The notes under the pieces were generated by a model. That model was not told the DNA's origin and did not search any database. It saw nothing but the letters and a program-made list of their open reading frames with translations. Source: an uncultured Chitinophaga sp. (GTDB lineage: Bacteria > Bacteroidota > Bacteroidia > Chitinophagales > Chitinophagaceae). From it: a DNA stretch of 64,000 nucleotides. The translations under genes and the position numbers were made by a program. The stretch lies in contig CAYLRV010000001.1 in NCBI GenBank assembly GCA_964386395.1, positions 23,807 through 87,806 on the forward strand, given 5' to 3'. Shown in pieces: positions 4,573 to 40,095 of the stretch (its first letter is position 1; every line of letters starts with the position of its first letter).

Positions 4573-5406
4573 CTATTCGTATTTTTTACTAAGCTGGTAC
4601 AATACTTTCAGCTGCTGGTCATTTAATCCCTTCGTTGTATCCTGCAACCAATGACGTTTGAAACCAATAATGGCTGCATTACTGTCCTTTGTATCATATC
4701 CAATGATCCGCAAGGCATGCAAACGATTGAAATTTGCAGGTAGCTGCACATTCGCTATATCATCATACCAGTACCCGAATCCTTTCTCCGATAATTGCTT
4801 CCAGGGAAAGCGCCAGTTGGGATCATTTTTACGGGTGGGCGCTATATCGCCGTGGCCGATAAAATTGGCTGCTGGTATGGAGTACGCATTTTTCAAACGG
4901 CCAAGCAGGGTGATCAAGCTATTTATTTGTGCTTCGGAAAAAGGCTCAAAGCCATTATTATCAAGTTCGATACCAACTGAAGAGGAATTTAAGTCAGTAG
5001 CATTGCCCCATTTGCTTACACCGGCATGGTGTGCCCTTAATAAATCATTGAGCATATGGTGCACGGTACCATCCTTACAAATTACATAGTGTGCACTTAC
5101 TTCACGGTTGCCTTTCACGGTAAACGTTCTTAACGTTTCCTCACAACTTTTCTGGGCAGTATGGTGGATGATCACATAGTTAGGCCGGCGTATGGTGAAG
5201 TTGATAGTACCAGCCCAATCCGCAGCATAATTCAATCCCGCGGAATCCTGTAAAGGATATTCAGCCAACAACTTTGCATATGCTTTTACCTGTTGCTTAT
5301 AAATTTTATTCGTACCCGCATATTTCGATTGCGAACAACCACAGGCAATAATAAGGAAGGCAAGGGACAGGGAAATGAACAAGCGGCTTTTTAAAAAGGA
5401 TTTCAT
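4573..5406 (-). CDS. N-acetylmuramoyl-L-alanine amidase, AmpD/PGRP (amidase_2) family lipoprotein
   Basis: Has a lipoprotein signal (LAFLIIACGC) and AmpD-like motifs (VIIHHTA, AHYVICKDGTVHHML, AHHAGVSKWG, GIELDN, HGDIAPTRKNDP). Confidence 0.8.
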   Translation of the reverse strand: MKSFLKSRLFISLSLAFLIIACGCSQSKYAGTNKIYKQQVKAYAKLLAEYPLQDSAGLNYAADWAGTINFTIRRPNYVIIHHTAQKSCEETLRTFTVKGNREVSAHYVICKDGTVHHMLNDLLRAHHAGVSKWGNATDLNSSSVGIELDNNGFEPFSEAQINSLITLLGRLKNAYSIPAANFIGHGDIAPTRKNDPNWRFPWKQLSEKGFGYWYDDIANVQLPANFNRLHALRIIGYDTKDSNAAIIGFKRHWLQDTTKGLNDQQLKVLYQLSKKYE

Positions 5407-29551: not shown

Positions 29552-29588
29552 AAAAGCCCGGTTTAGAACCGGGCTTTTGTTATTTACT
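29552..29588. terminator. bidirectional rho-independent terminator between convergent genes
   Basis: An AAAAGCCCGGTT...AACCGGGCTTTT hairpin sits between the 29533 (+) and 29584 (-) gene ends. Confidence 0.65.
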
Positions 29589-31035
29589 CTCCTACAACCT
29601 CCTCGCTTCCTTTCTTTCGCCAGGATCTATGTTTAGCCCCGTCCATTTTTACAATCTTCGGGGTAAACTTACCGACCACATCCACCAATGCCTTCTGTGA
29701 TTGCATCACAACATTAATATCCTTGTAGGCAAAAGGTGATTCATCCAGTCCGCCACCCAGCAGTTTTACGCCAAACTTATCCAGTTCGTCTTTCATCTGC
29801 TTATCGGTAACAGAAGCGATGGCCCTTGTACGGCTCATCTTCCGTCCGGCACCATGCGAGGCAGAGTTGACAGATGCGGATTCGCCTTTACCTTTTACAA
29901 TAAATCCATCGGCGGTCATTGAGCCCGGTATAATACCCAATACATCTTTACCTGCAGGTGTTGCGCCTTTACGGTGAACGATCACATCCTTACCTTCCCA
30001 TTTTTCTTTCCAGGCAAAATTGTGGTGATTCTCCACCATCTTCACTGGTTTACGTCCCAGTTGCTTCGCAATTTTGGCATGTATTACATGGTGACAGGCG
30101 CTGGCATAATCACCAGCCAGGTTCATTGCATTCCAATACTCTATGCCTTCTTCTTCATCCAGCAAAAGCCAGGCAAGATTTTTTGATTCCTGCGGCAAAC
30201 GCCTTTTGCTGATAGCCAGTTTAGTATAGTGGTTCGCTATGTTAGCACCTAGTGCCCGAGAACCGGAGTGAGTAAGAAAACCAATGTACTTACCAGCTTC
30301 TATACCCAATACCTGATCTTCTTCTGCAATATCCACGACGCCAAATTCGGCGAAGTGGTTACCCGACCCGGATGAACCTAACTGCTTCCACACACGGCCA
30401 TGCAATTTTTTCAGCATCGGTAGTTGAAAAAATAATTCATGCTCCATCACTTCGTGGTTAGCCGCCCGATCGAATTGTGCGCCGCTGCCAAACAATGTAG
30501 CCTCATTGATTTCACGGGCAAAATATGATTCCCGGTCCGTCAGATCTTTTGGGTTGATATCGAATACACTCAGGCACATACGGCATCCGATGTCTACTCC
30601 TACTCCGTAAGGGATAACAGCATTCTCGGTTGCCAGTACGCCACCGATTGGCAATCCATACCCGCTATGTGCATCTGGCATCAAGGCGCCGGCCACACTC
30701 ACCGGCAATTTAGCTGCCTGGTACATCTGGTGCATAGCGCCTTCTTCGATATGTTCCTGTCCAAATACATTAAACTGTATGCCGGTTTGGTTCAGCGAAA
30801 TTTCTGCCCCTTCCGTTTCTTTCTTTGGTATCAGCTGTTCTGCTATCAATGCAAGTACTGCGTCATTGCTGTACTCGATTGGATTGGCCAATACTTTTTG
30901 TAATAGTTCCATCACTTCCTCCTTTCCATGATGCTTATATTTTTTTTGCATCACATCCATTGCTATGCTAATTACCGGTCCTTCCGGGTAGCCAATAGTC
31001 CTTAGTTCTTTTCCTGTTATTTTTAGTTTACTCAT
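29584..31035 (-). CDS. rtcB: RNA 3'-phosphate/2',3'-cyclic-phosphate ligase RtcB (with about 70 aa N-terminal extension)
   Basis: RtcB metal and GTP-site motifs (MPDAHSGYGLP, GSGNHFAEFG, THSGSRALG, NHHNFAWKE, ASHGAGR) support the call. The start was set at MSKLKITG. Confidence 0.85.
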   Translation of the reverse strand: MSKLKITGKELRTIGYPEGPVISIAMDVMQKKYKHHGKEEVMELLQKVLANPIEYSNDAVLALIAEQLIPKKETEGAEISLNQTGIQFNVFGQEHIEEGAMHQMYQAAKLPVSVAGALMPDAHSGYGLPIGGVLATENAVIPYGVGVDIGCRMCLSVFDINPKDLTDRESYFAREINEATLFGSGAQFDRAANHEVMEHELFFQLPMLKKLHGRVWKQLGSSGSGNHFAEFGVVDIAEEDQVLGIEAGKYIGFLTHSGSRALGANIANHYTKLAISKRRLPQESKNLAWLLLDEEEGIEYWNAMNLAGDYASACHHVIHAKIAKQLGRKPVKMVENHHNFAWKEKWEGKDVIVHRKGATPAGKDVLGIIPGSMTADGFIVKGKGESASVNSASHGAGRKMSRTRAIASVTDKQMKDELDKFGVKLLGGGLDESPFAYKDINVVMQSQKALVDVVGKFTPKIVKMDGAKHRSWRKKGSEEVVGE

Positions 31036-31429
31036 TGTTTTGTTTTTTGAAACACGGTGACAGAGAGACAGGGGCGGCACAGTGTTTTTCGGTGTTGCCC
31101 TGTGTCGTTATGCCTTTGTGGTTCTATTTTTTGTTTACCAGCGACAGTAACTCCGGTCATCTTATGTTGCGTCGCACACTTCAGCTGCATATCCCTAATC
31201 ATCATAATCCCACATAATTTACCCTTTATTTAGATTCTCAAGCGCATCAATAAACTGTGCAACCCTTTCATCTTCTGACTCCTTGATAATAAAATCTAAC
31301 CGTTCAAAAGTATTTTCCAATAGAATTACAACAGTACAAGTGTGCGACGCAAGGGACGATGATAGAAGCAATACAGCCTGTAACATAAAAACATAAAACA
31401 TCCGGTACCGTTATAATACCGGATGTATA

Positions 31430-32527
31430 TTATTTACTTACCAAAATCTGCTTCAACTGCTCTAATAGCTGACCGTTACCGCCTACGCTGATATTGCTGA
31501 TTTTGTCGGCAATTTTCTCCACGTATTCCATTTCCTTCAGCTTCCAAAGCATGGCATTTTCTTCCATCAGTTTGGCTGTGTTCAGCAGGCTACGGGTGCT
31601 GGCAGTTTCTTCACGACGCATAATGGTGTTGGCCTGCGCCTTCTTTTCTGCCACCAGTACCTGGTTCATAATCTCTTTCATATCACCTGGCAGTATGATA
31701 TCACGAATACCAAAACCATTCACCGCAACACCCAATGCTTCTGCTTTTCCTTTCACACTTTGCAGGATAAAAGGAGCAATGGCTTCCTTCTTTTCCAGCA
31801 ATTCATCAAAGCCGAATCCGGCAATGTATTCACGCAGGGCCAGTTGCAGCGCCACGTACAGTTGCTTATCGTATTCTTTGTTCAGCACCATAGCTATTTC
31901 AAGGTCTGTTACGTTGTACTGTGACCAGGCATTGATACGCAATGCAGCCTTATCACGGGTCAGTATTTCCTGACCGTTGATTTCCAGTTGTTGCTGACGC
32001 ATATCTGCTTTCGCTACATGGATAGTGATACTGTTCTTCCACCAATAGTAGGTACCTGCATCCAGTTGCTTTACAAACTTACCATCTATGAACAACACCG
32101 CTTTCTCATAGCTTTGCACCTCGTAGTTACGCACCCAGTTGCTCACCGGTGCTTTTACCAGTACGGCACGGTCGATAGCCGTATCGATTTCAACCTGGCT
32201 GATATCAGCCCGAACGAAATCATTTTGCACAACAGATTTCCAGAATGCATAACGGCCGGCCGCCAGCACCTGCTTCAACAGGCCATTTTCGTATTGCAAC
32301 ACTATTTCTGTGTCTTTCACTTCCACTACCTGCAGTATAGCAGCCAGCTCCTTGTCCTGCAACAGGATGTTTAGTTCTACCGGTGCAGTGAATTGTTTGG
32401 TAATATCATAGATATATACCTGTTCGTTTTTCCAGAACCAGTAATTACCAGTCAGCAGCAGGCGCTTGTAGGCGCCATCTTTGAACACCAAACCAACCTG
32501 CCATGCGTTAATTTTTACTTTTTTCAT
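31430..32527 (-). CDS. SPFH/band-7 (flotillin/YqiK-like) protein
   Basis: Has an SPFH core and a C-terminal coiled region (RINAWSQYNV...EKKAQANTIMRREETASTRSLLNTAKLMEENAMLWKL). Confidence 0.7.
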   Translation of the reverse strand: MKKVKINAWQVGLVFKDGAYKRLLLTGNYWFWKNEQVYIYDITKQFTAPVELNILLQDKELAAILQVVEVKDTEIVLQYENGLLKQVLAAGRYAFWKSVVQNDFVRADISQVEIDTAIDRAVLVKAPVSNWVRNYEVQSYEKAVLFIDGKFVKQLDAGTYYWWKNSITIHVAKADMRQQQLEINGQEILTRDKAALRINAWSQYNVTDLEIAMVLNKEYDKQLYVALQLALREYIAGFGFDELLEKKEAIAPFILQSVKGKAEALGVAVNGFGIRDIILPGDMKEIMNQVLVAEKKAQANTIMRREETASTRSLLNTAKLMEENAMLWKLKEMEYVEKIADKISNISVGGNGQLLEQLKQILVSK

Positions 32528-32880
32528 TTTACTTGTTTTGCCCGTCAATAAACATTTATTTACTGTCAGCATGATTAATTAAAATAAAGCCGTGCTTGCC
32601 GCCACCAGTTACTACGGAATGAGATTAATACAACCCAGTTTCGTACAGTTCTTCACTCCCTCATCAGCTATACGTATATAACAAACTATGAGTGACGAAG
32701 TATAGTCAACTTCATTATACGCTTCTTATTTCGGGTAGCTGCCCGGCTGTATTGGTACAGGCTGCTTTAGCGTCCCGACCAATTACAGGCAACAAACCCG
32801 GCTTTTATCGGTCACCATTTTTTGAGAAGTGGTGTACTTCTTTGATACAAGCATCCTAAGTGCTTTGCGTTTACCATTTC

Positions 32881-33000
32881 CGCCATTTCCCCTTTAGAGG
32901 GAAAGCGGGATTCGAACCCGCATATTGTCTGTTGCTCTGTCCACTAAGCTACCGGGCCCATTGCCCGGATGGGATTCGAACCCATGACCCACAGGTTGTG
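32881..33000 (-). pseudogene. two tandem tRNA 3'-fragment remnants (T-arm plus partial acceptor/D-arm, no anticodon arm)
   Basis: Two T-arm reverse-complements are present (GCGGG ATTCGAA CCCGC and ATGGG ATTCGAA CCCAT). The first also retains a D-arm-like GGTAGCTTAGTGGACAGAGC, but neither folds into a full cloverleaf. Confidence 0.4.
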
Positions 33001-33163
33001 GTGATATATGTATCAGTGAAATAATAGCATACAGATAGCTATTGCGTCTGCACTGCCATGCTTGTTAAACATGTACCTGGTTTATTTTCAACAGGCATAT
33101 ATCATCTTGCCGTTAAGCAAGCCATTACGTTGATGTTTTCGCATCAACAATATTGTAAAGAGC

Positions 33164-34240
33164 TTAATTCATCAATGTCTCCGGCAGGCGAAACCCAATT
33201 ATCTCGGTCTGCTTTACTTCCTGCTGCTTTTCATGCGGGTTGGCGATCTCCGCTATTGTCATCGGACCGGTTATTGTTTTATCATATCCCAAATGTTCGC
33301 TTAGCCGCTGCGCTTTTTCTTTACTGAGCTTTCCGAATTCATAACGGGCTATCAACCTTCCTTTCCGCAACAGGGCACTGTCAATGGCTGTCAGTGAACT
33401 GTTGAATGTGCATATCAATTGCACATTCAGGAAGTCGGCCAGCAGACCATCTGATATATTCAGCAGGTTACTCACCGCTGAACTGCTGTTTTGCTTCCTG
33501 TCCATGATAATATTCTCGGCATCTTCAATTATCAAGACTGTATTCGGGTTATTGATCAGCAGTTCGATAAACTCAGGGTTCATCAGGTTTCCCGCTACCG
33601 ATGGTGAAAGGAATAAAACCCTTTTCTTTACCTTACCCACCAGGTACCGTAAATAGGTTGTCTTTCCTGTACCCGGTAAACCATGCAGCAGTACAATACC
33701 TTTGTCATTCTTTTGCCTGAGCCTTTTTTGTATGACCGTATCCACATCTTTAAAATCGTCTTCGTAAAAAAGTCCCAGATCCAGCTTTGTCCGTTTTATT
33801 TCCATCGCCCGCAGATCCATCGAATTCCGGCTTTGCACAATCAGGTTGATCTCCAATGGCTGCCGGCGTTGCCTTTCTTTAAACTGAAGGGCAATGGCAA
33901 CAATCGCTTTTACCAGTTCCCCGTCACTGCCATCGTGGAGTATTTCGCAATAGTCATCCTCCAGCTCCACAATACAGTTTTGTTGCAACACAATAAGCGT
34001 TTTATCAAACTGAAATTTCTTCTTTTTACGCTTGTACCAGGTCGTCCGATGAATGTTCTTTATTGATTGCGCAAATTTCTCCTGCAATACAGCAAACACC
34101 TTCTCCCCTTCCACATCGCTGATAAAATTGATGTTTGGCAGTGCGTTAAAACTGTACAGGTACAACATCTTTGCGTCCAGGAAAGAGTCGCCAAACACAT
34201 TGTTTGCGTTTATAACTTTCTGACTGTATAGATTTTCCAT
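33164..34240 (-). CDS. AAA+ ATPase with a roughly 180 aa N-terminal domain of unknown function
   Basis: Has a Walker A (LLHGLPGTGKTT), a Walker B (VLIIEDAEN) and the AAA sensor-2 motif LLRKGRL. It lies directly downstream of the tRNA array and the DUF458-like gene on the same strand. Confidence 0.7.
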   Translation of the reverse strand: MENLYSQKVINANNVFGDSFLDAKMLYLYSFNALPNINFISDVEGEKVFAVLQEKFAQSIKNIHRTTWYKRKKKKFQFDKTLIVLQQNCIVELEDDYCEILHDGSDGELVKAIVAIALQFKERQRRQPLEINLIVQSRNSMDLRAMEIKRTKLDLGLFYEDDFKDVDTVIQKRLRQKNDKGIVLLHGLPGTGKTTYLRYLVGKVKKRVLFLSPSVAGNLMNPEFIELLINNPNTVLIIEDAENIIMDRKQNSSSAVSNLLNISDGLLADFLNVQLICTFNSSLTAIDSALLRKGRLIARYEFGKLSKEKAQRLSEHLGYDKTITGPMTIAEIANPHEKQQEVKQTEIIGFRLPETLMN

Positions 34241-34341
34241 TGTCTTACATTTTAGCTGTTCCGTTGCCGGTAACAGTGTTCCTATTAATTTTTCGTTCCT
34301 TTCCTAATCTCCCGCCCGCAGGCAGGAGACCGAAAAGGTTG

Positions 34342-34848
34342 TTACTGTACCACTTTATTTGCACAGCTGGAGCTGGCAAAAGCTTCCGGTTTAGCCTTGA
34401 AAGCAAAACCCCTGCCTGTCCGGCAGGCAGGCATTCCCATGATATAGCCCATAGCTTCCTTCAGGGCATCGTTACTTTTAAAGTTTGGGTTGGTGTTGAT
34501 GTCCGCATGCACTTCCATATCCACACTGTAGCGGCTGAATATGTTGCACAGTGCATAGGCTACTTCGATACTTTTCTGTACTTCCATCAACATCCGTTCT
34601 TTAATCGTCATACGCTGGCGGGTTGTTTCATTATGGATATACATGAAACCACCTTTCCCTTTCCGGATGAATACGATTACCGTGGCAAACTCAGTCACCC
34701 TGGCTTTCACCTGGCTATCGGTACCAATGCAGACTTTCAATTCATGTCCATTCTCTTTTTCCTGCATCAATACACGGCTTACCTCTTCCGCAATCGGGAT
34801 TTGAATCCGTTCACCGGTCAATTTTCTCCATTGTTGTTCCTGTTCCAT
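34342..34848 (-). CDS. hypothetical protein, possibly DUF458 (YkuK-like RNase-H-fold) family
   Basis: A 168 aa ORF with VCIGTDSQ and GKGG motifs that recall the DUF458 family. It starts about 25 nt downstream of the last tRNA-like unit on the same strand. Confidence 0.4.
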   Translation of the reverse strand: MEQEQQWRKLTGERIQIPIAEEVSRVLMQEKENGHELKVCIGTDSQVKARVTEFATVIVFIRKGKGGFMYIHNETTRQRMTIKERMLMEVQKSIEVAYALCNIFSRYSVDMEVHADINTNPNFKSNDALKEAMGYIMGMPACRTGRGFAFKAKPEAFASSSCANKVVQ

Positions 34849-34871
34849 TGTTTTTGTTTTTCAATGTTGTG

Positions 34872-34945
34872 CTGCATAAGTACAAGGATTCGATCCACCT
34901 CCGGTGGATTGTAAGCCATTATGCTACCGTTACATCATACTTGCT
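34872..34945 (-). pseudogene. degenerate tRNA-like unit (CTTACAA anticodon-like loop, no foldable T-arm)
   Basis: A T-loop-like GGATTCGATCC and a D-region are present, but no consistent acceptor or T stems could be found. Confidence 0.25.
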
Positions 34946-34948
34946 TTT

Positions 34949-35021
34949 GTGGACAAAACAGGATTCGAACCTGTACTGCTGCGGCTTCAACGCAGTGCTC
35001 TGCCATTGGAGCTATTTGTCC
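34949..35021 (-). tRNA. tRNA-Phe (GAA)
   Basis: Manual fold: acceptor GGACAAA/TTTGTCC, D-arm GCTC-CAATGGCA-GAGC, anticodon arm CTGCG-TTGAAGC-CGCAG and T-arm ACAGG-TTCGAAT-CCTGT. Confidence 0.8.
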
Positions 35022-35115
35022 TTTTGTTTGTACCTGCACTGGCTGATCTTTTACACTTCATCACCGAATTGTGTTGCACAAACTCTGTCTTCCCGCCATA
35101 GCGGAATTATCATTG

Positions 35116-35203
35116 CGGAGAGTAAAGGATTCGAACCTTTGTACCGTTGTGAACGACAGCCCAAGCTTAGCAGGCTGGCACATTACCACTCTGTCAACCC
35201 TCC
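35116..35203 (-). tRNA. tRNA-Ser (GCU), type II
   Basis: Manual fold: acceptor GGAGGGT/ACTCTCC with one GU pair, a 3-bp D stem, anticodon loop CTGCTAA with one mismatch in its stem, a variable-arm hairpin and T-arm AAAGG-TTCGAAT-CCTTT. Confidence 0.55.
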
Positions 35204-35207
35204 TTTG

Positions 35208-35291
35208 TGTGATTAATAAGATTCGAACTTATTCAGCCCGAAGGCAACGGTTTTACAGACCGTTACGACTCTCCGTCTTCGTCGTACTCAC
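35208..35291 (-). tRNA. tRNA-Tyr (GUA), type II
   Basis: Manual fold: anticodon arm ACGGT-CTGTAAA-ACCGT, variable arm GCC-TTCG-GGC and T-arm ATAAG-TTCGAAT-CTTAT, with one G-A mismatch in the acceptor. It sits 4 nt from the Ser gene. Confidence 0.6.
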
Positions 35292-35302
35292 CAAAATTTC
35301 AG

Positions 35303-35379
35303 CGGATGAAGAAAGGGTCGAACTTTCAACCATCGGCTTAACATCCGCCACTGGCGGACTGCCATTGAGCTATTCATCC
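35303..35379 (-). pseudogene. non-canonical tRNA-like unit (77 nt)
   Basis: The acceptor GGATGAA/TTCATCC is perfect and the T-arm GAAAG-TTCGACC-CTTTC is present. The D-stem 3' half and anticodon arm are replaced by a CCGCC-AGT-GGCGG hairpin. Confidence 0.35.
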
Positions 35380-35383
35380 ATTG

Positions 35384-35457
35384 TTGTCCCGGTGAGATTC
35401 GAACTCACAACCCCCCGGTTAAAAGCCGGGTACATCTTCCAGTTGAGCTACGAGACA
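35384..35457 (-). tRNA. tRNA-Lys (UUU), with a weak D-stem
   Basis: The anticodon arm CCCGG-CTTTTAA-CCGGG and T-arm GTGAG-TTCGAAT-CTCAC fold well, and the acceptor holds with one GU pair. Only 2 of 4 D-stem pairs form. It lies 4 nt from the previous unit. Confidence 0.5.
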
Positions 35458-35463
35458 TTTTTG

Positions 35464-35555
35464 TTGCGGCTACCGGATTCACTGTCTGCCGACAGGCAGG
35501 GAACCAGTAACTCCTGCCATGTAAAAACAGCTTTCTCCCATTGAATTAAGCCGCA
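35464..35555 (-). tRNA. tRNA-Val (UAC)-like carrying a 20-nt insertion in the T-loop (35481..35500)
   Basis: The acceptor TGCGGCT/AGCCGCA is perfect and the anticodon loop is TTTACAT. The T-loop reads ATTC[ACTGTCTGCCGACAGGCAGG]GAA on the plus strand. Confidence 0.45.
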
Positions 35556-35572
35556 CTGCTTCATAAGGTTTG

Positions 35573-35644
35573 TGATGGTTGACAGATTCGAACTGTCAGC
35601 CGCTATCGTATCAGGATAGTACTCTGCCATTGAGTTAAACCATC
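35573..35644 (-). tRNA. tRNA-Ile (GAU)
   Basis: Manual fold gives a perfect cloverleaf: acceptor GATGGTT/AACCATC, D-arm ACTC-AATGGCA-GAGT, anticodon arm CTATC-CTGATAC-GATAG and T-arm GACAG-TTCGAAT-CTGTC. Confidence 0.75.
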
Positions 35645-35648
35645 ATTG

Positions 35649-35720
35649 TTGCGGCTGCCAGATTCGAACCAGCATTTGAAGCTTATGAGACTTCTGAGTT
35701 AGCCATTACGCTAAACCGCA
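35649..35720 (-). tRNA. tRNA-Met/Ile2 (CAU)
   Basis: Manual fold: acceptor with one GU pair, anticodon arm GAAGT-CTCATAA-GCTTC and a T-stem with two GU pairs. It sits 4 nt from the Ile gene. Confidence 0.5.
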
Positions 35721-35729
35721 ATTAATATG

Positions 35730-35803
35730 TAAGCCTGGTGAGAATCGAACTCACACTACATGGCTTCTAAGGCCATTGCCTCTCCCAATTGGGCTACAAG
35801 CTT
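35730..35803 (-). tRNA. class-I-shaped tRNA with Leu anticodon UAG (non-canonical: short variable arm)
   Basis: The anticodon arm ATGGC-CTTAGAA-GCCAT folds cleanly. The variable region is 5 nt, the D stem is 3 bp, the T-arm is GTGAG-TTCGATT-CTCAC and the discriminator is A. Confidence 0.5.
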
Positions 35804-35813
35804 ATTTCATTTG

Positions 35814-35886
35814 TCGGCCAGACTGGATTCGAACCAGTAACCTTTTGCGTATAAGGCAACTGCTCACACCGTTGAGCTACAGGCCG
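35814..35886 (-). tRNA. tRNA with anticodon UAU (Ile-like)
   Basis: The D-arm GCTC-AACGGTGT-GAGC folds, the anticodon loop is CTTATAC and the T-arm is ACTGG-TTCGAAT-CCAGT. The acceptor has one mismatch. Confidence 0.5.
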
Positions 35887-35894
35887 CTTGTTTG

Positions 35895-35987
35895 CTGACT
35901 CAGAAAGATTCCCTGCCAGTCGGCAGACAGGGAACTTTCATCTCCTCATTCGTAGTGAGGTGTTCTTCTCCATTGAACTATAAGTCA
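35895..35987 (-). tRNA. tRNA-Arg (ACG) carrying a 20-nt insertion in the T-loop (35912..35931)
   Basis: The rest of the cloverleaf is otherwise canonical: acceptor TGACTTA/TGAGTCA, D-arm GTTC-AATGGAGAA-GAAC and anticodon arm CCTCA-CTACGAA-TGAGG. The T-loop reads ATTC[CCTGCCAGTCGGCAGACAGG]GAA on the plus strand. Confidence 0.5.
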
Positions 35988-35993
35988 TCATTG

Positions 35994-36109
35994 TACGGCT
36001 TCAGGAATTCCTGCCTGGCCGGCAGCCAGGGAACCTCTGCAACGATCACCTGCTATTTTCCTCTCAGAAAGAAAGGGAGGTGATTATGTTTCCATTACAA
36101 CAAGCCGTA
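35994..36109 (-). pseudogene. tRNA-like unit with a 20-nt T-loop insertion (36011..36030) and a second roughly 21-nt expansion of the anticodon loop
   Basis: The acceptor ACGGCTT/AAGCCGT is perfect and the D-arm is recognisable. A 6-bp stem (ATCACC/GGTGAT) closes a 28-nt loop, and the T-loop carries the insertion CTGCCTGGCCGGCAGCCAGG. Confidence 0.3.
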
Positions 36110-36111
36110 TT

Positions 36112-36186
36112 GGGTGCACTGCGGGGCTCGAACCCTGTTCTCCCGATGCACAGTCGGGCACTTTACCAAATAAGCTACAGCCACCA
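36112..36186 (-). pseudogene. tRNA-His (GUG)-like, probably degenerate
   Basis: The 5' half matches tRNA-His very well (G-1 GTGGCTG TA GCTT..., anticodon arm CCCGA-CTGTGCA-TCGGG). The T-stem has only 3 pairs, and the 3' acceptor strand is disrupted (GTGCACTG rather than GTGGCTG). Confidence 0.35.
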
Positions 36187-36190
36187 TCTG

Positions 36191-36282
36191 TTACCCGGCT
36201 CAGACTCCCTGTCTGCTGACAGGCAGGGAACTGAGAATACCAGACTCAAATTCTGGTGTGTTGCCAATTACACCACCCGGTA
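36191..36282 (-). tRNA. tRNA-Gln (UUG)-like carrying a 20-nt insertion in the T-loop (36208..36227)
   Basis: Manual fold: anticodon arm CCAGA-ATTTGAG-TCTGG, D-arm GTGT/ACAC and T-stem CTCAG/CTGAG flanking ACTC[CCTGTCTGCTGACAGGCAGG]GAA. The acceptor has one G-G mismatch. Confidence 0.45.
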
Positions 36283-36455
36283 ATCGTGCAGCATGAGTGA
36301 ATCCCTGTCTGCAGACTGGAAGTGAACATGCAGCCTTCCGCCGCGGCGGATATCCGGCCAATCGAAATGCTCCTATATTTTGCTCAAAGAACTTTTGGAA
36401 AAGCATCCCCGCTGCACCTGCGGGGAGCTTTGTCCCTCCTTCTGCACATAATCTG

Positions 36456-36590
36456 TTAACGCAGTTCATATTCTGCAGGGTGACGAACTTTGCAGTTGGT
36501 CATTCCTTTGTGATGAACATTGCTTTTATTTTCTTTCTTTATCAGCACTTTCACTATAAAGTGAATGGCCAGTACTATCAGTAAAAATTT
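36456..36590 (-). CDS. possible small hydrophobic protein (45 aa)
   Basis: The ORF reads MKFLLIVLAIHFIVKVLIKKENKSNVHHKGMTNCKVRHPAEYELR, with one predicted TM helix followed by a basic tail. It lies downstream of a strong minus-strand terminator. Confidence 0.2.
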   Translation of the reverse strand, partial: KFLLIVLAIHFIVKVLIKKENKSNVHHKGMTNCKVRHPAEYELR

Positions 36591-36679
36591 CATAGCTACC
36601 TCCTTTCTATTAACTGCATTTTTTATTTCCGCACTCTTCACCAATTGATTTCCTAACACTTCAACGACGGGAAATCTTT

Positions 36680-36750
36680 GTGGCAACCCACCTTCGCCAA
36701 AGCTTCGGTGGGTAAATAAAAAAACCCGGTCGTTTTTAGCGACCGGGTTT
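36680..36750 (-). terminator. repeat unit A: hairpin ACCCACC...GGTGGGT followed by a strong terminator (CCCGGTCG...CGACCGGG plus T7 on the minus strand)
   Basis: Both hairpins were read directly from the sequence, and this unit is a copy of the one at 37045..37112. Confidence 0.55.
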
Positions 36751-37044
36751 CCTGGCAAGCACAATTGTACTTACCTATGGATTGTCCGGTCGCCGATGGT
36801 GATCATTCTCATTACCTATGGGCACAATACTCCTGTTCGCTTGCGCAGAGCAATAGCATATGGCTGATAGTTGATCATTCATCGTTTGACTAAATCGTTT
36901 ATGTCGTAATAGTTTCAGCATTCTTTATTTTTCGGTTACAATAGATTCAAAACTTTTCCGATTACATAACTATTTTTCTTGTCCACTTACACTGAAGCTT
37001 GGGATTATCGCTTTCGCTTGCGCTGTGGGTAACACTTCTTCGCC

Positions 37045-37112
37045 GGCGGGTAACCCACCTTCGCTAAAGCTACGGTGGGTAAATAAAAAGCCCCGACGTT
37101 TGCCGGGGCCTG
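37045..37112 (-). terminator. repeat unit B: hairpin ACCCACC...GGTGGGT followed by a terminator (GCCCCG...CGGGGC plus T-run on the minus strand)
   Basis: It has the same architecture as unit A, with compensatory base changes in the terminator stem. It lies downstream of the Dabb gene. Confidence 0.55.
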
Positions 37113-37331
37113 TATTTCATTGAATTCGTTAGTATAACTTATCCTGGCAAAATACATGCCCCACAAACAGTGTAGTCTCCCTTGGGACTAAACCAATTCG
37201 CTGATTCAATATGTAATTTTATGCGTAGCATGTTTTTGTTTTGCAGTGCAAAGATGAATTTATTTTTTTGATGTTGCCAAATTTTTCTTGAAGAATTTTT
37301 AAAAATTATTTTTTTGCGCACAATTCCTATT

Positions 37332-37739
37332 TCAAATATCAACTGAATCATACACTATTACTTTACTCCACAAATGCGAATATTCCTCAATGAAAAGCAG
37401 GTGAATGGGATCAGTTTGATAACTCGCATGGTCTGCATCATTTTCAAAATACACCAGCCAGGATACAGCATAGCCTCTTTCAATTACTTCACGATTAGTA
37501 TCAGCCGGTTTACCAATCCGGAAACTTTTTATCGTTTTTACTTTCGATAATTTATGCAAACCTTCCACTAATTTTTCCCTGTCAGCAAGATTGTCCGTAT
37601 TCTTTAACCAGAAGAATACATGATGAATAAATGCAGCCTTCTTTTTGCCAGTTGATTTTGTTCCTGAAAAAGAAGATAACCCTGTTACGAGTGCGGCTGC
37701 ACCTGCTTTATTGATAAATTGTTTGCGGGTTTGTTTCAT
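37332..37739 (-). CDS. Dabb (stress-responsive alpha/beta-barrel) domain protein
   Basis: Matches the Dabb fold (FIHHVFFWLKN...VKTIKSFRIGKP...YQTDPIHLLFIEE). The start was set at MKQTRKQF. Confidence 0.6.
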   Translation of the reverse strand: MKQTRKQFINKAGAAALVTGLSSFSGTKSTGKKKAAFIHHVFFWLKNTDNLADREKLVEGLHKLSKVKTIKSFRIGKPADTNREVIERGYAVSWLVYFENDADHASYQTDPIHLLFIEEYSHLWSKVIVYDSVDI

Positions 37740-37800
37740 GATGCCTGTATTTTCGGCATAAGGTAATGCAAAATTAAATGCCGGCAATCGCAGACCTGTT

Positions 37801-38910
37801 TCAAAACAACCTCCCCTGCCCGCCCGGTACCTGGAACTTACTCCTGTCAAGGCTCCATTCCTCCGCATTCATGCCGTATAGCTTACCGTATTTTTTATAC
37901 TGCATCGCTACCATCTCTGCGATATTCCCTTCGCCACGCATGCGTACGCCCCATCGGGTATCATTTACTTTTCCATCGTGGCTTTGTTCGATCAGGTGCC
38001 ACACTTTATCTGCCCTGTCGGGAAAGTTCTTATATAACCAGTCGTGAAATAGAAATTTTATCGCCCCGTTGAGCCGTATGAATGTATACGCTGTAAAGGT
38101 TGCGCCGTTGTCCTTCGCTGCTTTCATGATACGCTGCATTTCATGTTCATTCAGGCCCGGTATCATCGGCCCCATCATGATGCCCATCCGTACTCCTGCG
38201 CTGCTTAACTCGTTTATCACTTTCAGTTTTTGCTTAGCTGTGGTGGTGCGTGGCTCCATTGCCCTTCGCAGATCTTCATTGAAGGATGTAATGGATACCA
38301 TGGCTGACACAATCTGTTTCTTGCCCATTTCCTGCAGCACATCCTTGTCCTTCAGTATCCAGGAGTTTTTGGTGAGTATACCTACCGGCTGGTTAAATTC
38401 ATTGCAGACTTCCAGTAATCCTCTCGTCAGCCGGTATTTTTGTTCGGCAGGCTGGTAGCAATCGGTATTGCCACTGAGCATGATCGGCGTGGCATCCCAA
38501 TCCTTTTTCATCAGGAATTTTCGCAGCAGTTGTGGTGCATTTTTCTTGACAATTATTTTTCGCTCAAAATCCAGCCCGGCACTGTAACCCCAGTATTCAT
38601 GCACATTTCTTGCATAGCAATAGATGCAGCCATGCTCGCACCCGGCATACGGGTTCATGCTGTACATCATTCCCACATCCCTGCTCTCTACTTTGTTTAC
38701 GATGGTTTTTGATTCCTGTTCCATGTAAATAGTTGGCACATTTGATTCTTCCCAGTCGTCAATGCCTTCAATGTGCTCTCTTGTTGTTTCATTTTTTAAA
38801 AACCGGTTCTTTGTATTGAACTGGGCACCGCGACCGGCGAGGTAGGGCTTTGTTTCTTCAGGTTGCTTCACTTCTACTTTGAAATGATCTTGTTGCAAAT
38901 CCTTGCTCAT
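37801..38910 (-). CDS. radical SAM protein, SplB/Rv2578c-like (DNA-repair-photolyase-like family)
   Basis: Has the CxxxCxxC cluster motif (GCEHGCIYCYARN) and a family-typical length. Confidence 0.7.
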   Translation of the reverse strand: MSKDLQQDHFKVEVKQPEETKPYLAGRGAQFNTKNRFLKNETTREHIEGIDDWEESNVPTIYMEQESKTIVNKVESRDVGMMYSMNPYAGCEHGCIYCYARNVHEYWGYSAGLDFERKIIVKKNAPQLLRKFLMKKDWDATPIMLSGNTDCYQPAEQKYRLTRGLLEVCNEFNQPVGILTKNSWILKDKDVLQEMGKKQIVSAMVSITSFNEDLRRAMEPRTTTAKQKLKVINELSSAGVRMGIMMGPMIPGLNEHEMQRIMKAAKDNGATFTAYTFIRLNGAIKFLFHDWLYKNFPDRADKVWHLIEQSHDGKVNDTRWGVRMRGEGNIAEMVAMQYKKYGKLYGMNAEEWSLDRSKFQVPGGQGRLF

Positions 38911-39044
38911 GCAATTGTTTTAAATAGTGATTATTTTGAACCACGGAGACACAAGGACAGGGAGATGCACAGATATACACATACTGCCGGGAGACAGTCA
39001 CGGTGAGCTGGCGACAGGGAGAAGCACAAAAGCCGTGCTTATTT

Positions 39045-39461
39045 TTAAAGAATCATCCTTTTAATGCCATCTTTCATAAGCGGTGCGTGAAAATTTAATA
39101 CATAGCCAAGCCGCTTTTGTGTAAGGCGCAGGTAACTTAATAGCTGGGCATCCCAAACGGGATGATAGTTATCCTGCGCTTTCAATTCAACAATTATTAA
39201 ATTGTCAATCAATATATCAATCCGAAGACCATCACTAATGATCAATTTATCGTATACCAGTTCTACATTTTTTTGAACAACAAACGGAATATCCCTTTTG
39301 GTCAATTCATAACAGAAGCATTTTTCATACACACTTTCAATTAAGCCCGGACCGAGAAACCTATGGATCTTTATAGCAATATCCATTATTTGATATGTCA
39401 GCCATATTTCCCTTTCGGTTAAAGGTTTATGCTTTTTTTCTGTGCCGCTCCGTGCCGTCAT
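39045..39461 (-). CDS. GxxExxY protein (PD-(D/E)xK nuclease-fold family)
   Basis: Carries the signature HRFLGPGLIESVYEKCFCYEL, and the start was set at MTARSG. The family is typically found in rRNA/tRNA-proximal positions in Bacteroidota and cyanobacteria. Confidence 0.65.
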   Translation of the reverse strand: MTARSGTEKKHKPLTEREIWLTYQIMDIAIKIHRFLGPGLIESVYEKCFCYELTKRDIPFVVQKNVELVYDKLIISDGLRIDILIDNLIIVELKAQDNYHPVWDAQLLSYLRLTQKRLGYVLNFHAPLMKDGIKRMIL

Positions 39462-39483
39462 GCCGCTGTGGTTCAAAATATAA

Positions 39484-40095
39484 TCAGAATAACTCCCCCT
39501 GCTTCGTTGCAACCGGCAGGTTCTGGAATTGGAATGTTGCTGCAATACGATATTTCATTTCCCCCACCGGCCGTTTGAGCAAAGTCATGCCATCAGCAAT
39601 AAACCGACCGGTAAAATGCTTTTGACTATACTCCAGCCAGCCCTTTTCATACTGCCAGGGCTTTAATTTCCGGGCAATGGTCAGGTGGGGCTCCATGATA
39701 AAATGCGGTTTATTATCCTCGTTCAGTTTCATCAGGCGCTGGCTTTCTGTACGGATGCTTTTTACCAGGCCTTGTACCGGTAATTTGCTGGTTACATTGA
39801 TATAAATAGTATGCGCCGGAAAACTGCCAAAATCTTTCAGCTCCACTTTAAATGGCGGGAAGCCCATGGCCACATTCCGCAGCCGGTTTAGTATCCGTTC
39901 TTCCAGCATGGCATGCTGCACAAAATTGACCAGCGTAATATGCGGCTTGCCCCATCTTGCATGATCCGATTTGTACGCAGTAGCAAAATCCTCCTTCACT
40001 TTCATTATCCTTTTCCATAGCTCTTCGTGCGGACTAAGCACCAATAAGTACTCATATTCCCGGTAGCCCGGGATCGTGTTGATAATACTTTCCAT
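39484..40095 (-). CDS. 2H-phosphoesterase superfamily protein (LigT/ThpR-like RNA 2',3'-cyclic phosphodiesterase / 2'-5' RNA ligase)
   Basis: Two H-x-T/S-x motifs are present (HITL and HLTI) in a protein of about 200 aa. Confidence 0.7.
   Translation of the reverse strand: MESIINTIPGYREYEYLLVLSPHEELWKRIMKVKEDFATAYKSDHARWGKPHITLVNFVQHAMLEERILNRLRNVAMGFPPFKVELKDFGSFPAHTIYINVTSKLPVQGLVKSIRTESQRLMKLNEDNKPHFIMEPHLTIARKLKPWQYEKGWLEYSQKHFTGRFIADGMTLLKRPVGEMKYRIAATFQFQNLPVATKQGELF

Follow-up and report, generated by a model that had tools for sequence, protein, structure and literature searches.

Why should several transfer RNA (tRNA) genes of one bacterial array be interrupted by a short palindrome at the same bond of the T-loop? 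The question is raised by a 64,000-nucleotide (nt) stretch of DNA from an uncultured Chitinophaga sp. (GenBank assembly GCA_964386395.1, contig CAYLRV010000001.1, positions 23,807 to 87,806), referred to below, as a whole, as the window. The original prediction for this stretch had described near-palindromic inserts of exactly 20 nt between the TTC and GAA of the T-loop in four tRNA-like genes, with a partial fifth copy nearby. We propose, with a probability of roughly 0.6, that each insert is a copy of a mobile DNA element that is palindromic, non-autonomous and very small (20 or 21 nt), has a hot spot in the T-loop and disables spare tRNA genes, and that may be mobilized by a GIY-YIG nuclease.

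The interrupted genes belong to a head-to-tail array of about 16 tRNA-like units on the minus strand, at about 34875–36376, in the order Pro-like (interrupted), Gln (interrupted), His, a unit with an unusually long anticodon arm (the long-arm unit, interrupted), Arg (interrupted), Ile-UAU, Leu, Met, Ile-GAU, Val (interrupted), Lys, two weak units, Ser, Phe and one weak unit. On the native sequence ARAGORN calls seven tRNAs; the Rfam tRNA model additionally matches 35208–35291, 35303–35379, 36113–36184 and, weakly, 34875–34944, and gives a truncated, sub-threshold match to the Arg unit as it stands. In Val-UAC, Arg-ACG and Gln-UUG, the acceptor, D, anticodon and T stems are normal apart from 20 extra bases, and ARAGORN calls none of the three while the 20-mers are present. 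Deleting positions 35481–35500, 35912–35931 and 36208–36227 in silico led it to call tRNA-Val(tac), tRNA-Arg(acg) and tRNA-Gln(ttg), respectively. Direct reading places all three junctions exactly between C56 and G57, the sole register that restores TTCGA.

The predicted TTC/GAA position (here and below, a slash within a target motif or between two adjacent positions marks the point of insertion) therefore holds for Val, Arg and Gln, as the calls after excision show, and fails for the long-arm unit, which is split at TTC/AATTC by an insert that measures 21 rather than 20 nt against the uninterrupted orthologue in a related array (L196; labels beginning with L denote loci compared in this analysis, and those beginning with P denote YkuK homologues). 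The supposed partial copy at 36300–36325 proved to be complete, a 20-mer that differs by three substitutions and interrupts the T-loop of a tRNA-Pro-like unit now decayed, and a sixth copy lies in the neighboring YkuK gene (Table 1). As predicted, the Arg copy is essentially the reverse complement of the Val copy, with two bases excepted, and the element is thus present in both orientations. The consensus 20-mer, with up to three mismatches allowed, has three matches in the window against 0.00 expected from 100 shuffles. Relative to this consensus, the 21-nt copy of the long-arm unit is altered at two bases (T>G / A>C) in a way that preserves the inner 5-base-pair (bp) hairpin. All five copies within the tRNA-like units of the window (5/5) occupy bond 56/57; by simple counting, given about 17 bonds of this kind in about 1,500 positions, such an outcome would almost never arise by chance.

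Table 1. Element copies, their host units and associated genes in the window.
Feature	Position	Strand	Evidence
20-nt element in tRNA-Val(UAC); tRNA sense CCTGCCTGTCGGCAGACAGT	35481..35500	.	Excision test; uninterrupted Val in L197
20-nt element in tRNA-Arg(ACG), opposite orientation; tRNA sense CCTGTCTGCCGACTGGCAGG	35912..35931	.	Excision test; Arg uninterrupted in L195, L196
20-nt element in tRNA-Gln(UUG), between C56 and G57; tRNA sense CCTGCCTGTCAGCAGACAGG	36208..36227	.	Excision test; empty-site allele in L190
21-nt variant in long-arm unit, between TTC and AATTC; plus strand CCTGCCTGGCCGGCAGCCAGG, tRNA sense CCTGGCTGCCGGCCAGGCAGG	36010..36030	.	Uninterrupted orthologue in L196
20-nt copy with 3 substitutions in T-loop of decayed Pro-like unit, flanks GTTC/GATTC; tRNA sense ACTTCCAGTCTGCAGACAGG	36304..36323	.	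Sequence reading; alignment by eye to the intact first-unit tRNA-Pro genes in L322, L325, L233, L297
21-nt variant, sixth copy, in frame in YkuK gene; encodes PACRTGR	34411..34431	.	Most homologues lack these 7 residues
tRNA-Val(UAC), split between C56 and G57	35463..35555	-	ARAGORN after excision
tRNA-Arg(ACG), split between C56 and G57	35894..35987	-	ARAGORN after excision; cloverleaf with extended T arm (predicted fold)
tRNA-Gln(UUG), split in T-loop; one acceptor-stem mismatch, G5-G68	36190..36282	-	ARAGORN after excision; fold; comparison with L190 Gln
Long-arm tRNA-like unit, T-stem weakened in window	35994..36109	-	Fold; orthologues in L196, L322, L272
Decayed tRNA-Pro(UGG)-like first unit	36287..36376	-	Pro(tgg) called by ARAGORN at this place in related arrays; fold no better than shuffled sequence
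Whole array	34875..36376	-	ARAGORN; Rfam tRNA matches; ARAGORN after excision; syntenic arrays adjoin YkuK homologues
YkuK / DUF458 RNase H-like protein gene, immediately downstream of array; hosts sixth copy	34342..34848	-	Pfam PF04308, E = 2e-34
RtcB RNA ligase gene	29584..31080	-	Pfam PF01139, E = 3e-81

Insert-free alleles, which the original prediction had suggested looking for, are present in relatives for all four units that it named. The tRNA-Gln(UUG) of L190 has an identical T arm (ctcagTTCGAGTctgag) with no insert, and Gln(ttg) is likewise called by ARAGORN among related arrays. The Val orthologue of L197 is uninterrupted, with Val(tac) called in L195, L197 and L321; the Arg T-loop is uninterrupted in L195 and L196, with Arg(acg) called in L321, L322, L325 and L332; and the long-arm orthologue of L196 reads CAGTTC/AATTCTGAA without interruption. 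Filled and empty sites differ by exactly 20–21 nt, and no flanking sequence is duplicated. Because related arrays hold these uninterrupted orthologues, we conclude from the allelic comparison that the inserts entered as DNA, by clean insertion in either orientation. Related arrays also carry hits of their own. In L272 a 20-nt copy has independently entered the long-arm unit at the same T-loop bond; other members of the same island family are hit in the T-loops of His and Ile (L233), Asn (L258), Asp (L278) and Ser (L297); the short contig L281 has a tRNA cluster in which the T-loop of Met is hit; and in L196 the element occurs at bond 9/10 of the tRNA-Arg orthologue, in a spacer and in the YkuK gene.

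Recurrence at the T-loop extends well beyond this family of arrays. A metagenome scan for GTTC, the element and RA in succession returned at least 120 loci with 138 listed sites, and in 102 of 136 (75%) the flanks could form at least four of the five T-stem pairs, compared with about 7% expected. This establishes GTTC/RA in T-arm context as a recurrent hot spot. The TTCGAA hexamer as such is not the target, because A57 sites are also hit (L111, L272 and the long-arm unit). Of the earlier proposal of a miniature palindromic insertion targeting TTCGAA, the insertion stands, given empty sites, both orientations and a dispersed family, and the target becomes GTTC/RA in T-arm context. Avoidance of TTCGAA as a restriction site was considered and rejected, as most array tRNAs keep the site. 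The T-loop pattern was absent from the viral contigs searched.

An origin involving no site-specific enzyme would be a single chance T-loop insertion that spread to its neighbors by short-patch gene conversion or replication template switching, with GGTTC...GAATCC microhomology to guide it and palindromic TTC/GAA flanks to allow inversion. All five T-loop copies do lie in one 1.5-kb array, and all window copies belong to asymmetric or 21-nt sub-families, none being the commonest perfect palindrome. The Pro and Arg copies, moreover, share a rare CCAG variant in opposite orientation that occurs in none of the 138 listed metagenome sites, and because of this sharing we infer that at least some array copies were derived from one another, by copying inside the array with inversion. 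As an explanation of the inserts at large, this origin is nevertheless unlikely: more than 100 T-arm insertions lie in unrelated contigs, many at single tRNA or transfer-messenger RNA (tmRNA) loci and with exact consensus; other arrays were hit independently in different tRNAs; and clean insertion also occurs where such microhomology is lacking (bond 9/10, spacers and coding sequence).

The host sequences of T-loop copies have a common character. Among the 138 listed sites, 119 lie in 3′ fragments comprising the variable loop, T arm and acceptor 3′ strand, and 75 of those 119 fragments have an intact tRNA or tmRNA on the same strand no more than 450 nt upstream. Full-length hosts number 17, of which 11 are tRNA-Arg genes with an uninterrupted tRNA-Arg nearby and five more lie in arrays or clusters. 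T-loop copies are thus found almost only in redundant sequence, that is, in fragments, duplicates and supernumerary array tRNAs. One such locus (L210, 2005–2470) pairs a complete tmRNA gene (Rfam, 167.8 bits) with a duplicated T-arm and acceptor fragment 26 nt further on (..CCACCTCCACCA) whose T-loop contains the 20-mer. Element and host decay in parallel in the window: the Pro copy combines three substitutions with a ruined tRNA, the T-stem of the long-arm unit is weakened, and the Gln unit has its acceptor mismatch. The Pro-like unit has a shortened anticodon arm and an unpaired 3′ T-stem and acceptor, and folds no better than shuffled sequence (z = 0.02); in related arrays the first unit is an intact tRNA-Pro, which ARAGORN calls as Pro(tgg) at the same place.

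Predicted folds of the uncut Arg and Gln units retain the cloverleaf, with the T arm drawn out into a continuous hairpin of about 14 pairs, in line with the original prediction that the insert would extend the T-stem into a long hairpin. In both folds C56-G57 stacks directly on the first and last base pair of the insert, giving an unbroken helix whose only bulge is U60. In the lineage of the window, the element entered at the phosphodiester between the bases for C56 and R57 in the T-loops of five different array units, and one further copy entered the adjacent YkuK gene in frame. We envisage that the insert would be kept in the transcript, where the T-loop would become the middle of the continuous hairpin of about 14 bp. 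With the T-loop in mid-hairpin, the elbow between T-loop and D-loop presumably could not form, and the loss of the elbow would disable the tRNA gene. Such disabling would be tolerated only because the array genes are redundant; the interrupted tRNAs are supernumerary, and losing them would carry little cost.

The sixth copy bears on the fate of the insert in RNA. YkuK homologues are mostly 161–162 amino acids (aa) long and lack the seven-residue insert PACRTGR encoded by the window copy. The same insert is present at the same site in L196 and L321; other homologues have PACRSGR or PACRAGR there, or PAYRTGR/SACPAGR at a second site. All of these copies are 21 nt long and in frame, and the reading frame is conserved downstream in several lineages, so that the copies in the YkuK gene appear to be translated. 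Two homologues (P0002 and P0038) differ from all others at alignment columns ~112–118, with GGFIRQLADNE in place of GGFM--YIHNE, which may reflect a further small insertion or a local frame change.

These observations argue against a reading in which the inserts are true intervening sequences, excised when an endonuclease cuts both pre-tRNA junctions (leaving 2′,3′-cyclic phosphate and 5′-OH ends) and the RtcB ligase encoded near the array reseals the T-loop, assisted by a LigT-type 2H phosphoesterase or the YkuK nuclease. Such a system would draw on genes that are indeed conserved around the array (RtcB, the 2H/LigT phosphoesterase, a PD-(D/E)XK nuclease and the RNase H-like YkuK), the insert boundaries are sharp and identical, and Val, Arg and Gln become cloverleaf-competent once excised. 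However, the RtcB/YkuK gene set also surrounds arrays that lack the element (L325 and relatives, and L322 in part), and the linkage of RtcB to long tRNA arrays is general and previously reported (PMC8421152). The coding-sequence copies are solely 21 nt long, in frame and translated, T-loop copies elsewhere shun the functional gene copy, and the most mutated window copy sits in a decayed tRNA. Both orientations are present, and the two junctions oppose each other in an unbroken helix with no bulge-helix-bulge, which no known endonuclease would excise so precisely. We consider splicing very unlikely, and for the idea of an intron-like element removed from the RNA we found no positive support, given in-frame translated copies, redundant sites, a decayed host and a continuous helix. 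For the same reasons (coding copies of 21 nt that are translated, avoidance of the functional gene copy, parallel decay of element and host, both orientations, and opposed junctions in an unbroken helix) we favor a hairpin that would stay in the RNA and disable it. Were splicing true, Bacteria would have, in the conserved run of LigT, radical SAM, array, YkuK, AAA, SPFH and RtcB, their first system for enzyme-dependent tRNA splicing. The palindrome would then act as a mini-intron that moves and invades T-loops, and the textbook view of bacteria as lacking protein-catalysed tRNA splicing would have to change.

A retained hairpin might also be put to use. The altered RNAs could serve as tRNA-like decoys or sponges for tRNA-cleaving toxins, or the hairpins could act as processing or termination signals that quiet a costly foreign array. 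Long arrays have been proposed to be sponges for toxin RNases under translational stress (PMC8421152), the neighborhood here also contains a Y-RNA-like tRNA mimic and the conserved, non-canonical long-arm unit, and the double change in the hairpin of the 21-nt copy is compensatory. Even so, we judge this reading the least probable of those weighed here: the insertions are lineage-specific, with none common to the array haplotypes sampled, their orientation is random, the same element occurs in plainly dead fragments, in spacers and in a protein gene, and host units decay after insertion.

The long-arm unit itself has an anticodon arm about 24 nt above the normal length, with a 7-bp outer stem and an inner CCUUUC/GAGAGG hairpin, and orthologues at L196 ~1010–1100, L322 ~3940 onward and L272 ~2120–2230. 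The arm shows compensatory changes from one lineage to another (CACCU/AGGUG versus CAUCU/AGAUG in L196, L322 and L272), which suggests that the conserved unit is a structured RNA. Three further array units (35208–35291, 35303–35379 and 34875–34944, minus strand) score 38, 33 and 23.6 bits against the Rfam tRNA model, are not called by ARAGORN and carry no palindromic element; they are additional non-canonical or decaying members of the array.

Is the element confined to tRNA genes? A pattern search that left the flanks free identified 68 viral loci and at least 120 genome loci (at least 188 in total), the latter from Bacteroidota, Patescibacteria, Omnitrophota, Planctomycetota, Gammaproteobacteria and other phyla. 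Two forms make up 180 of 203 copies: 122 are the perfect palindrome CCTGCCTGCCGGCAGGCAGG, and 58 are CCTGCCTGTCGGCAGACAGG or its complement, in which two 5-bp half-sites are not nested but interleaved, in the order X Y X′ Y′. There are also 21-nt relatives, and tandem arrays; we take the two 20-nt sequences and the 21-nt relatives to be forms of one element. Most family copies lie outside tRNAs. The original prediction had set its proposal against a dispersed repeat with no preference for TTC/GAA; the 20-mer is indeed common at many non-tRNA sites, but a preference for T-loop bond 56/57 exists. As a general rule of insertion, a target sequence motif was rejected, the flanks showing nothing beyond a purine preference at −1 (72%). 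The idea that copies generally enter at the tip of a hairpin already present was likewise rejected: joined flanks folded like random sites, a poor measure, and flanking Watson–Crick runs of at least 5 bp are in weak excess (9% of sites versus 3.4% of controls).

Copies may be nested (L069, L009 and L042) or stand in tandem heptamer contexts (L001, L015, L036 and L153). In L069 (~2015–2080, a Bacteroidales metagenome-assembled genome), one copy lies inside another in a tRNA D-loop: agctcagttg[tctgcctgccg[CCTGCCTGTCGGCAGACAGG]gtaggcagg]gatagagc. At the end of a viral contig (L064, 3915–4124), at least 10 head-to-tail copies of the 21-nt relative CCATGCCTACCGGCAGGCAGG run up to the end of the stretch, with six more dispersed relatives inside the same 4 kb; the tandem run could be a real array or an assembly effect.

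What might move such an element? When every open reading frame (ORF) of 70 aa or more situated no further than 1.5 kb from a copy was clustered, across the 188 loci listed, GIY-YIG nucleases were the only recurrent neighboring family. The ORF in question is small (~80–90 aa), consists of the catalytic domain only (PF01541) and is wedged between a functional tRNA and an element-carrying duplicate or fragment. In 23 of the 120 T-loop loci listed and about six of the 188 unbiased loci listed, no more than about 100 nt separates the element from a GIY-YIG ORF, which may have it at one end or at both; by our own estimate from the counts, this proximity is roughly 12-fold above the rest of those loci. 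In these cassettes the element is always in the displaced tRNA duplicate or fragment and may be near either ORF end. Example loci, with the 20-mer in the T- or D-loop of a duplicated full or partial tRNA copy, are L263 (4700–5080), L289 (reverse complement, 4720–5400), L315 (7800–8500), L132 (2100–2480), L055 (490–860) and L111 (7400–7809); in L289 two more element-bearing T-arm fragments follow in tandem. Because this is the only family recurrently found right beside the element in other genomes, we hypothesize that insertion would be catalysed in trans by the small GIY-YIG nuclease, which may act as a dimer on the palindrome. The island genes of the window (YkuK, RtcB, AAA, SPFH, PD-(D/E)XK, LigT and radical SAM) were rejected as mobilizers, since they occur near the element only in the island family and not at other loci.

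The same cassettes could be read as evidence for a protective role of the element at the DNA level, where splitting the best-conserved DNA motif of a tRNA gene would make that copy immune to a GIY-YIG homing endonuclease or integrase that targets tRNA genes, or would break a direct repeat through which the nuclease cassette would be deleted. The constant placement of the element in the displaced duplicate near an ORF end would suit such a role, and tRNA arrays are known to be accompanied by homing endonucleases (SegB of T4; HNH genes beside cyanobacterial arrays; PMC8421152). We nevertheless find it rather improbable, as the functional, uninterrupted copy beside the nuclease gene keeps an intact T-arm, most tRNAs of the window array retain TTCGAA with no nuclease gene nearby, and most family copies lie far from tRNAs.

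Several points weigh against our preferred reading, a mobile palindrome that disables spare tRNA genes. Neither the 64-kb window nor the related island loci contain a GIY-YIG gene, and most copies elsewhere are solo. The link to the nuclease may be indirect: a cassette that makes dead tRNA duplicates could simply provide neutral T-loop targets. At the GIY-YIG loci the element may be carried along within the cassette, and its confinement to the duplicate would then reveal nothing about selection. That the hairpin would remain in the transcript and that function would be lost is read from sequence, and the Val and Arg cloverleaves are flawless except for the insert, as would be expected equally of a tolerated and of a spliced insert. 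Ascertainment also matters, because the window was chosen for this feature. T-loop copies make up only about two of 123 in the unbiased genome sample (L111 and L119), with several more in D or variable loops, and eight array haplotypes found through YkuK alone (window excluded) carry no T-loop insertion and seven elsewhere; the T-loop hot spot is therefore not the sole target.

The array stands within a conserved gene island. Along the array strand the order is LigT-type 2H phosphoesterase, PD-(D/E)XK, radical SAM, array, YkuK/DUF458, AAA ATPase, SPFH and RtcB, and much of it recurs near YkuK homologues of other, Chitinophagaceae-like assemblies, with some members missing at some loci: L197 lacks SPFH, and no RtcB was found in L189–L194 within the 8-kb flank. 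Considered with its neighbor UmuD/UmuC, the arrangement UmuD/UmuC, LigT (2H), PD-(D/E)XK_3, radical SAM, tRNA array, YkuK, AAA, SPFH, RtcB is seen at 29584–40095 of the window and in L195, L197–L200, L322 and L325–L333. The order array, YkuK, AAA, (SPFH), RtcB recurs also around arrays without any element (L325 and relatives; L322 partly). The island looks like an RNA repair or stress module built around the tRNA array. Several large proteins of the window have a type IX secretion system (T9SS) sorting domain, and the closest source-named YkuK homologues are from Chitinophagaceae or Bacteroidota; the window is a Bacteroidota chromosome. A phage origin of the array was rejected, since the phage collection gave only short tRNA-level matches and the genes on either side are those of a Bacteroidota chromosome, with T9SS sorting domains.

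Between the AAA and SPFH genes, at 32927–32993 (minus strand), lies a partial Y-RNA-like match (YrlA, RF02553; 39.2 bits, E = 5.6e-07, below the gathering score of 69), followed by a tRNA-like fragment with D-arm and T-arm and by a second GGTTCGAATCC at 32908–32918. YrlA-type tRNA mimics occur beside rsr-rtcB operons; no Ro60/Rsr gene was seen among the ORFs scanned.

Long tRNA gene arrays are supernumerary and horizontally spread, and their neighborhood is enriched in RNA-processing genes such as rtcB (Santamaria-Gomez et al. 2021, PMC8421152). By the definition given there, the window array is of the L-array type, horizontally acquired and supernumerary: it comprises about 16 close-set, same-strand supernumerary tRNA genes, some degenerate, has rtcB and RNA-processing neighbors, and varies in content among relatives. 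No T-loop palindromic insertions are described in that work, in which 'insertion' appears once, generically, for array rearrangements. The L-array is here the host of the element and not the element itself.

If our reading is correct, the element, at 20 nt and essentially identical across distant phyla, would be among the smallest mobile DNA elements known, and it would land on a single phosphodiester of the tRNA T-loop, the most conserved motif in biology. It would explain tRNA genes that gene finders miss, three more being called here after insert removal, and would provide a marker for the turnover of horizontally acquired tRNA arrays. The pairing of a palindrome with a minimal GIY-YIG nuclease is testable and would parallel repetitive extragenic palindromic (REP) sequences and their RAYT transposases with a different enzyme fold.

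How, then, does the element compare with known systems? No paper in the searchable literature contains the exact 20-mers, whether spelled as DNA or as RNA, and none was found that describes the element, the T-loop hot spot or the accompanying GIY-YIG nuclease. Archaeal non-canonical tRNA introns, which form a bulge-helix-bulge and are spliced by EndA and RtcB, occur at positions other than the anticodon, including the T-loop region; splice sites of protein-spliced tRNA introns lie in two 3-nt bulges separated by a 4-bp helix. PMC3978253 reviews such introns. A short intervening sequence off the anticodon and an encoded RtcB ligase are common to both cases, whereas here the predicted folds contain no bulge-helix-bulge, the host is bacterial, and copies occur in spacers, fragments and coding sequence as well. 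Protein-spliced introns also call for a splicing endonuclease of the EndA/Sen family alongside the ligase; no EndA domain was found among the 10 flanking ORFs scanned. A bacterial group I intron, which has a self-splicing ribozyme core (~200 nt or more) and sits in the anticodon loop, was rejected, as the insert is 20–21 nt long and in the T-loop, and 33000–38000 contains no Rfam intron match. So was a miniature inverted-repeat transposable element, usually 50–500 bp, with terminal inverted repeats and a target-site duplication: filled and empty sites differ by 20–21 nt with no duplicated flank. Free-standing GIY-YIG homing endonucleases near tRNA genes (T4 SegB; PMC8421152) resemble our cassettes in being small ORFs between tRNA copies with duplicated tRNA sequence; unlike them, the ORFs described here are catalytic-domain-only (~80–90 aa), have a constant 20-nt palindrome at one or both ends and are absent from the window.

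The closest known systems are REP/RAYT, the Rickettsia palindromic elements and the small dispersed repeats (SDRs) of Nostoc. Like REP or REPIN sequences mobilized by RAYT (Y1 HUH), the element is a short, mostly extragenic, non-autonomous palindrome with many solo copies and few that flank a presumed mobilizer gene; it differs in lacking a GTAG-type 5′ tetranucleotide, in entering RNA genes and coding sequence, and in being only 20 nt long. ORF clustering at the at least 188 loci revealed no RAYT-like neighbor, although no search with RAYT's own profile was made. Rickettsia palindromic elements are 100–150 bp long, limited to Rickettsia and without T-loop specificity. They too are palindromes tolerated in frame in protein genes, occur also in RNA genes and are not removed from the transcript, but they are far longer than this element, belong to a single genus and lack its preference for the T-loop. 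SDR4–6 of Nostocaceae, which Elhai and colleagues reportedly described in 2008 (Genome Res 18:1484; cited in PMC3116915 and PMC5861425), are said to be 21–27-nt hairpin repeats that behave like mobile DNA, insert cleanly, nest and are embedded in tandem heptamers. We know of no T-loop hot spot, in-frame 21-nt coding copies or GIY-YIG linkage described for them. Hairpin repeats, clean insertion, nesting and heptamer contexts, as reported for the Nostocaceae repeats, are all found here as well, in an element that probably differs in sequence and occurs in many phyla and in viral contigs rather than in Nostocaceae alone.

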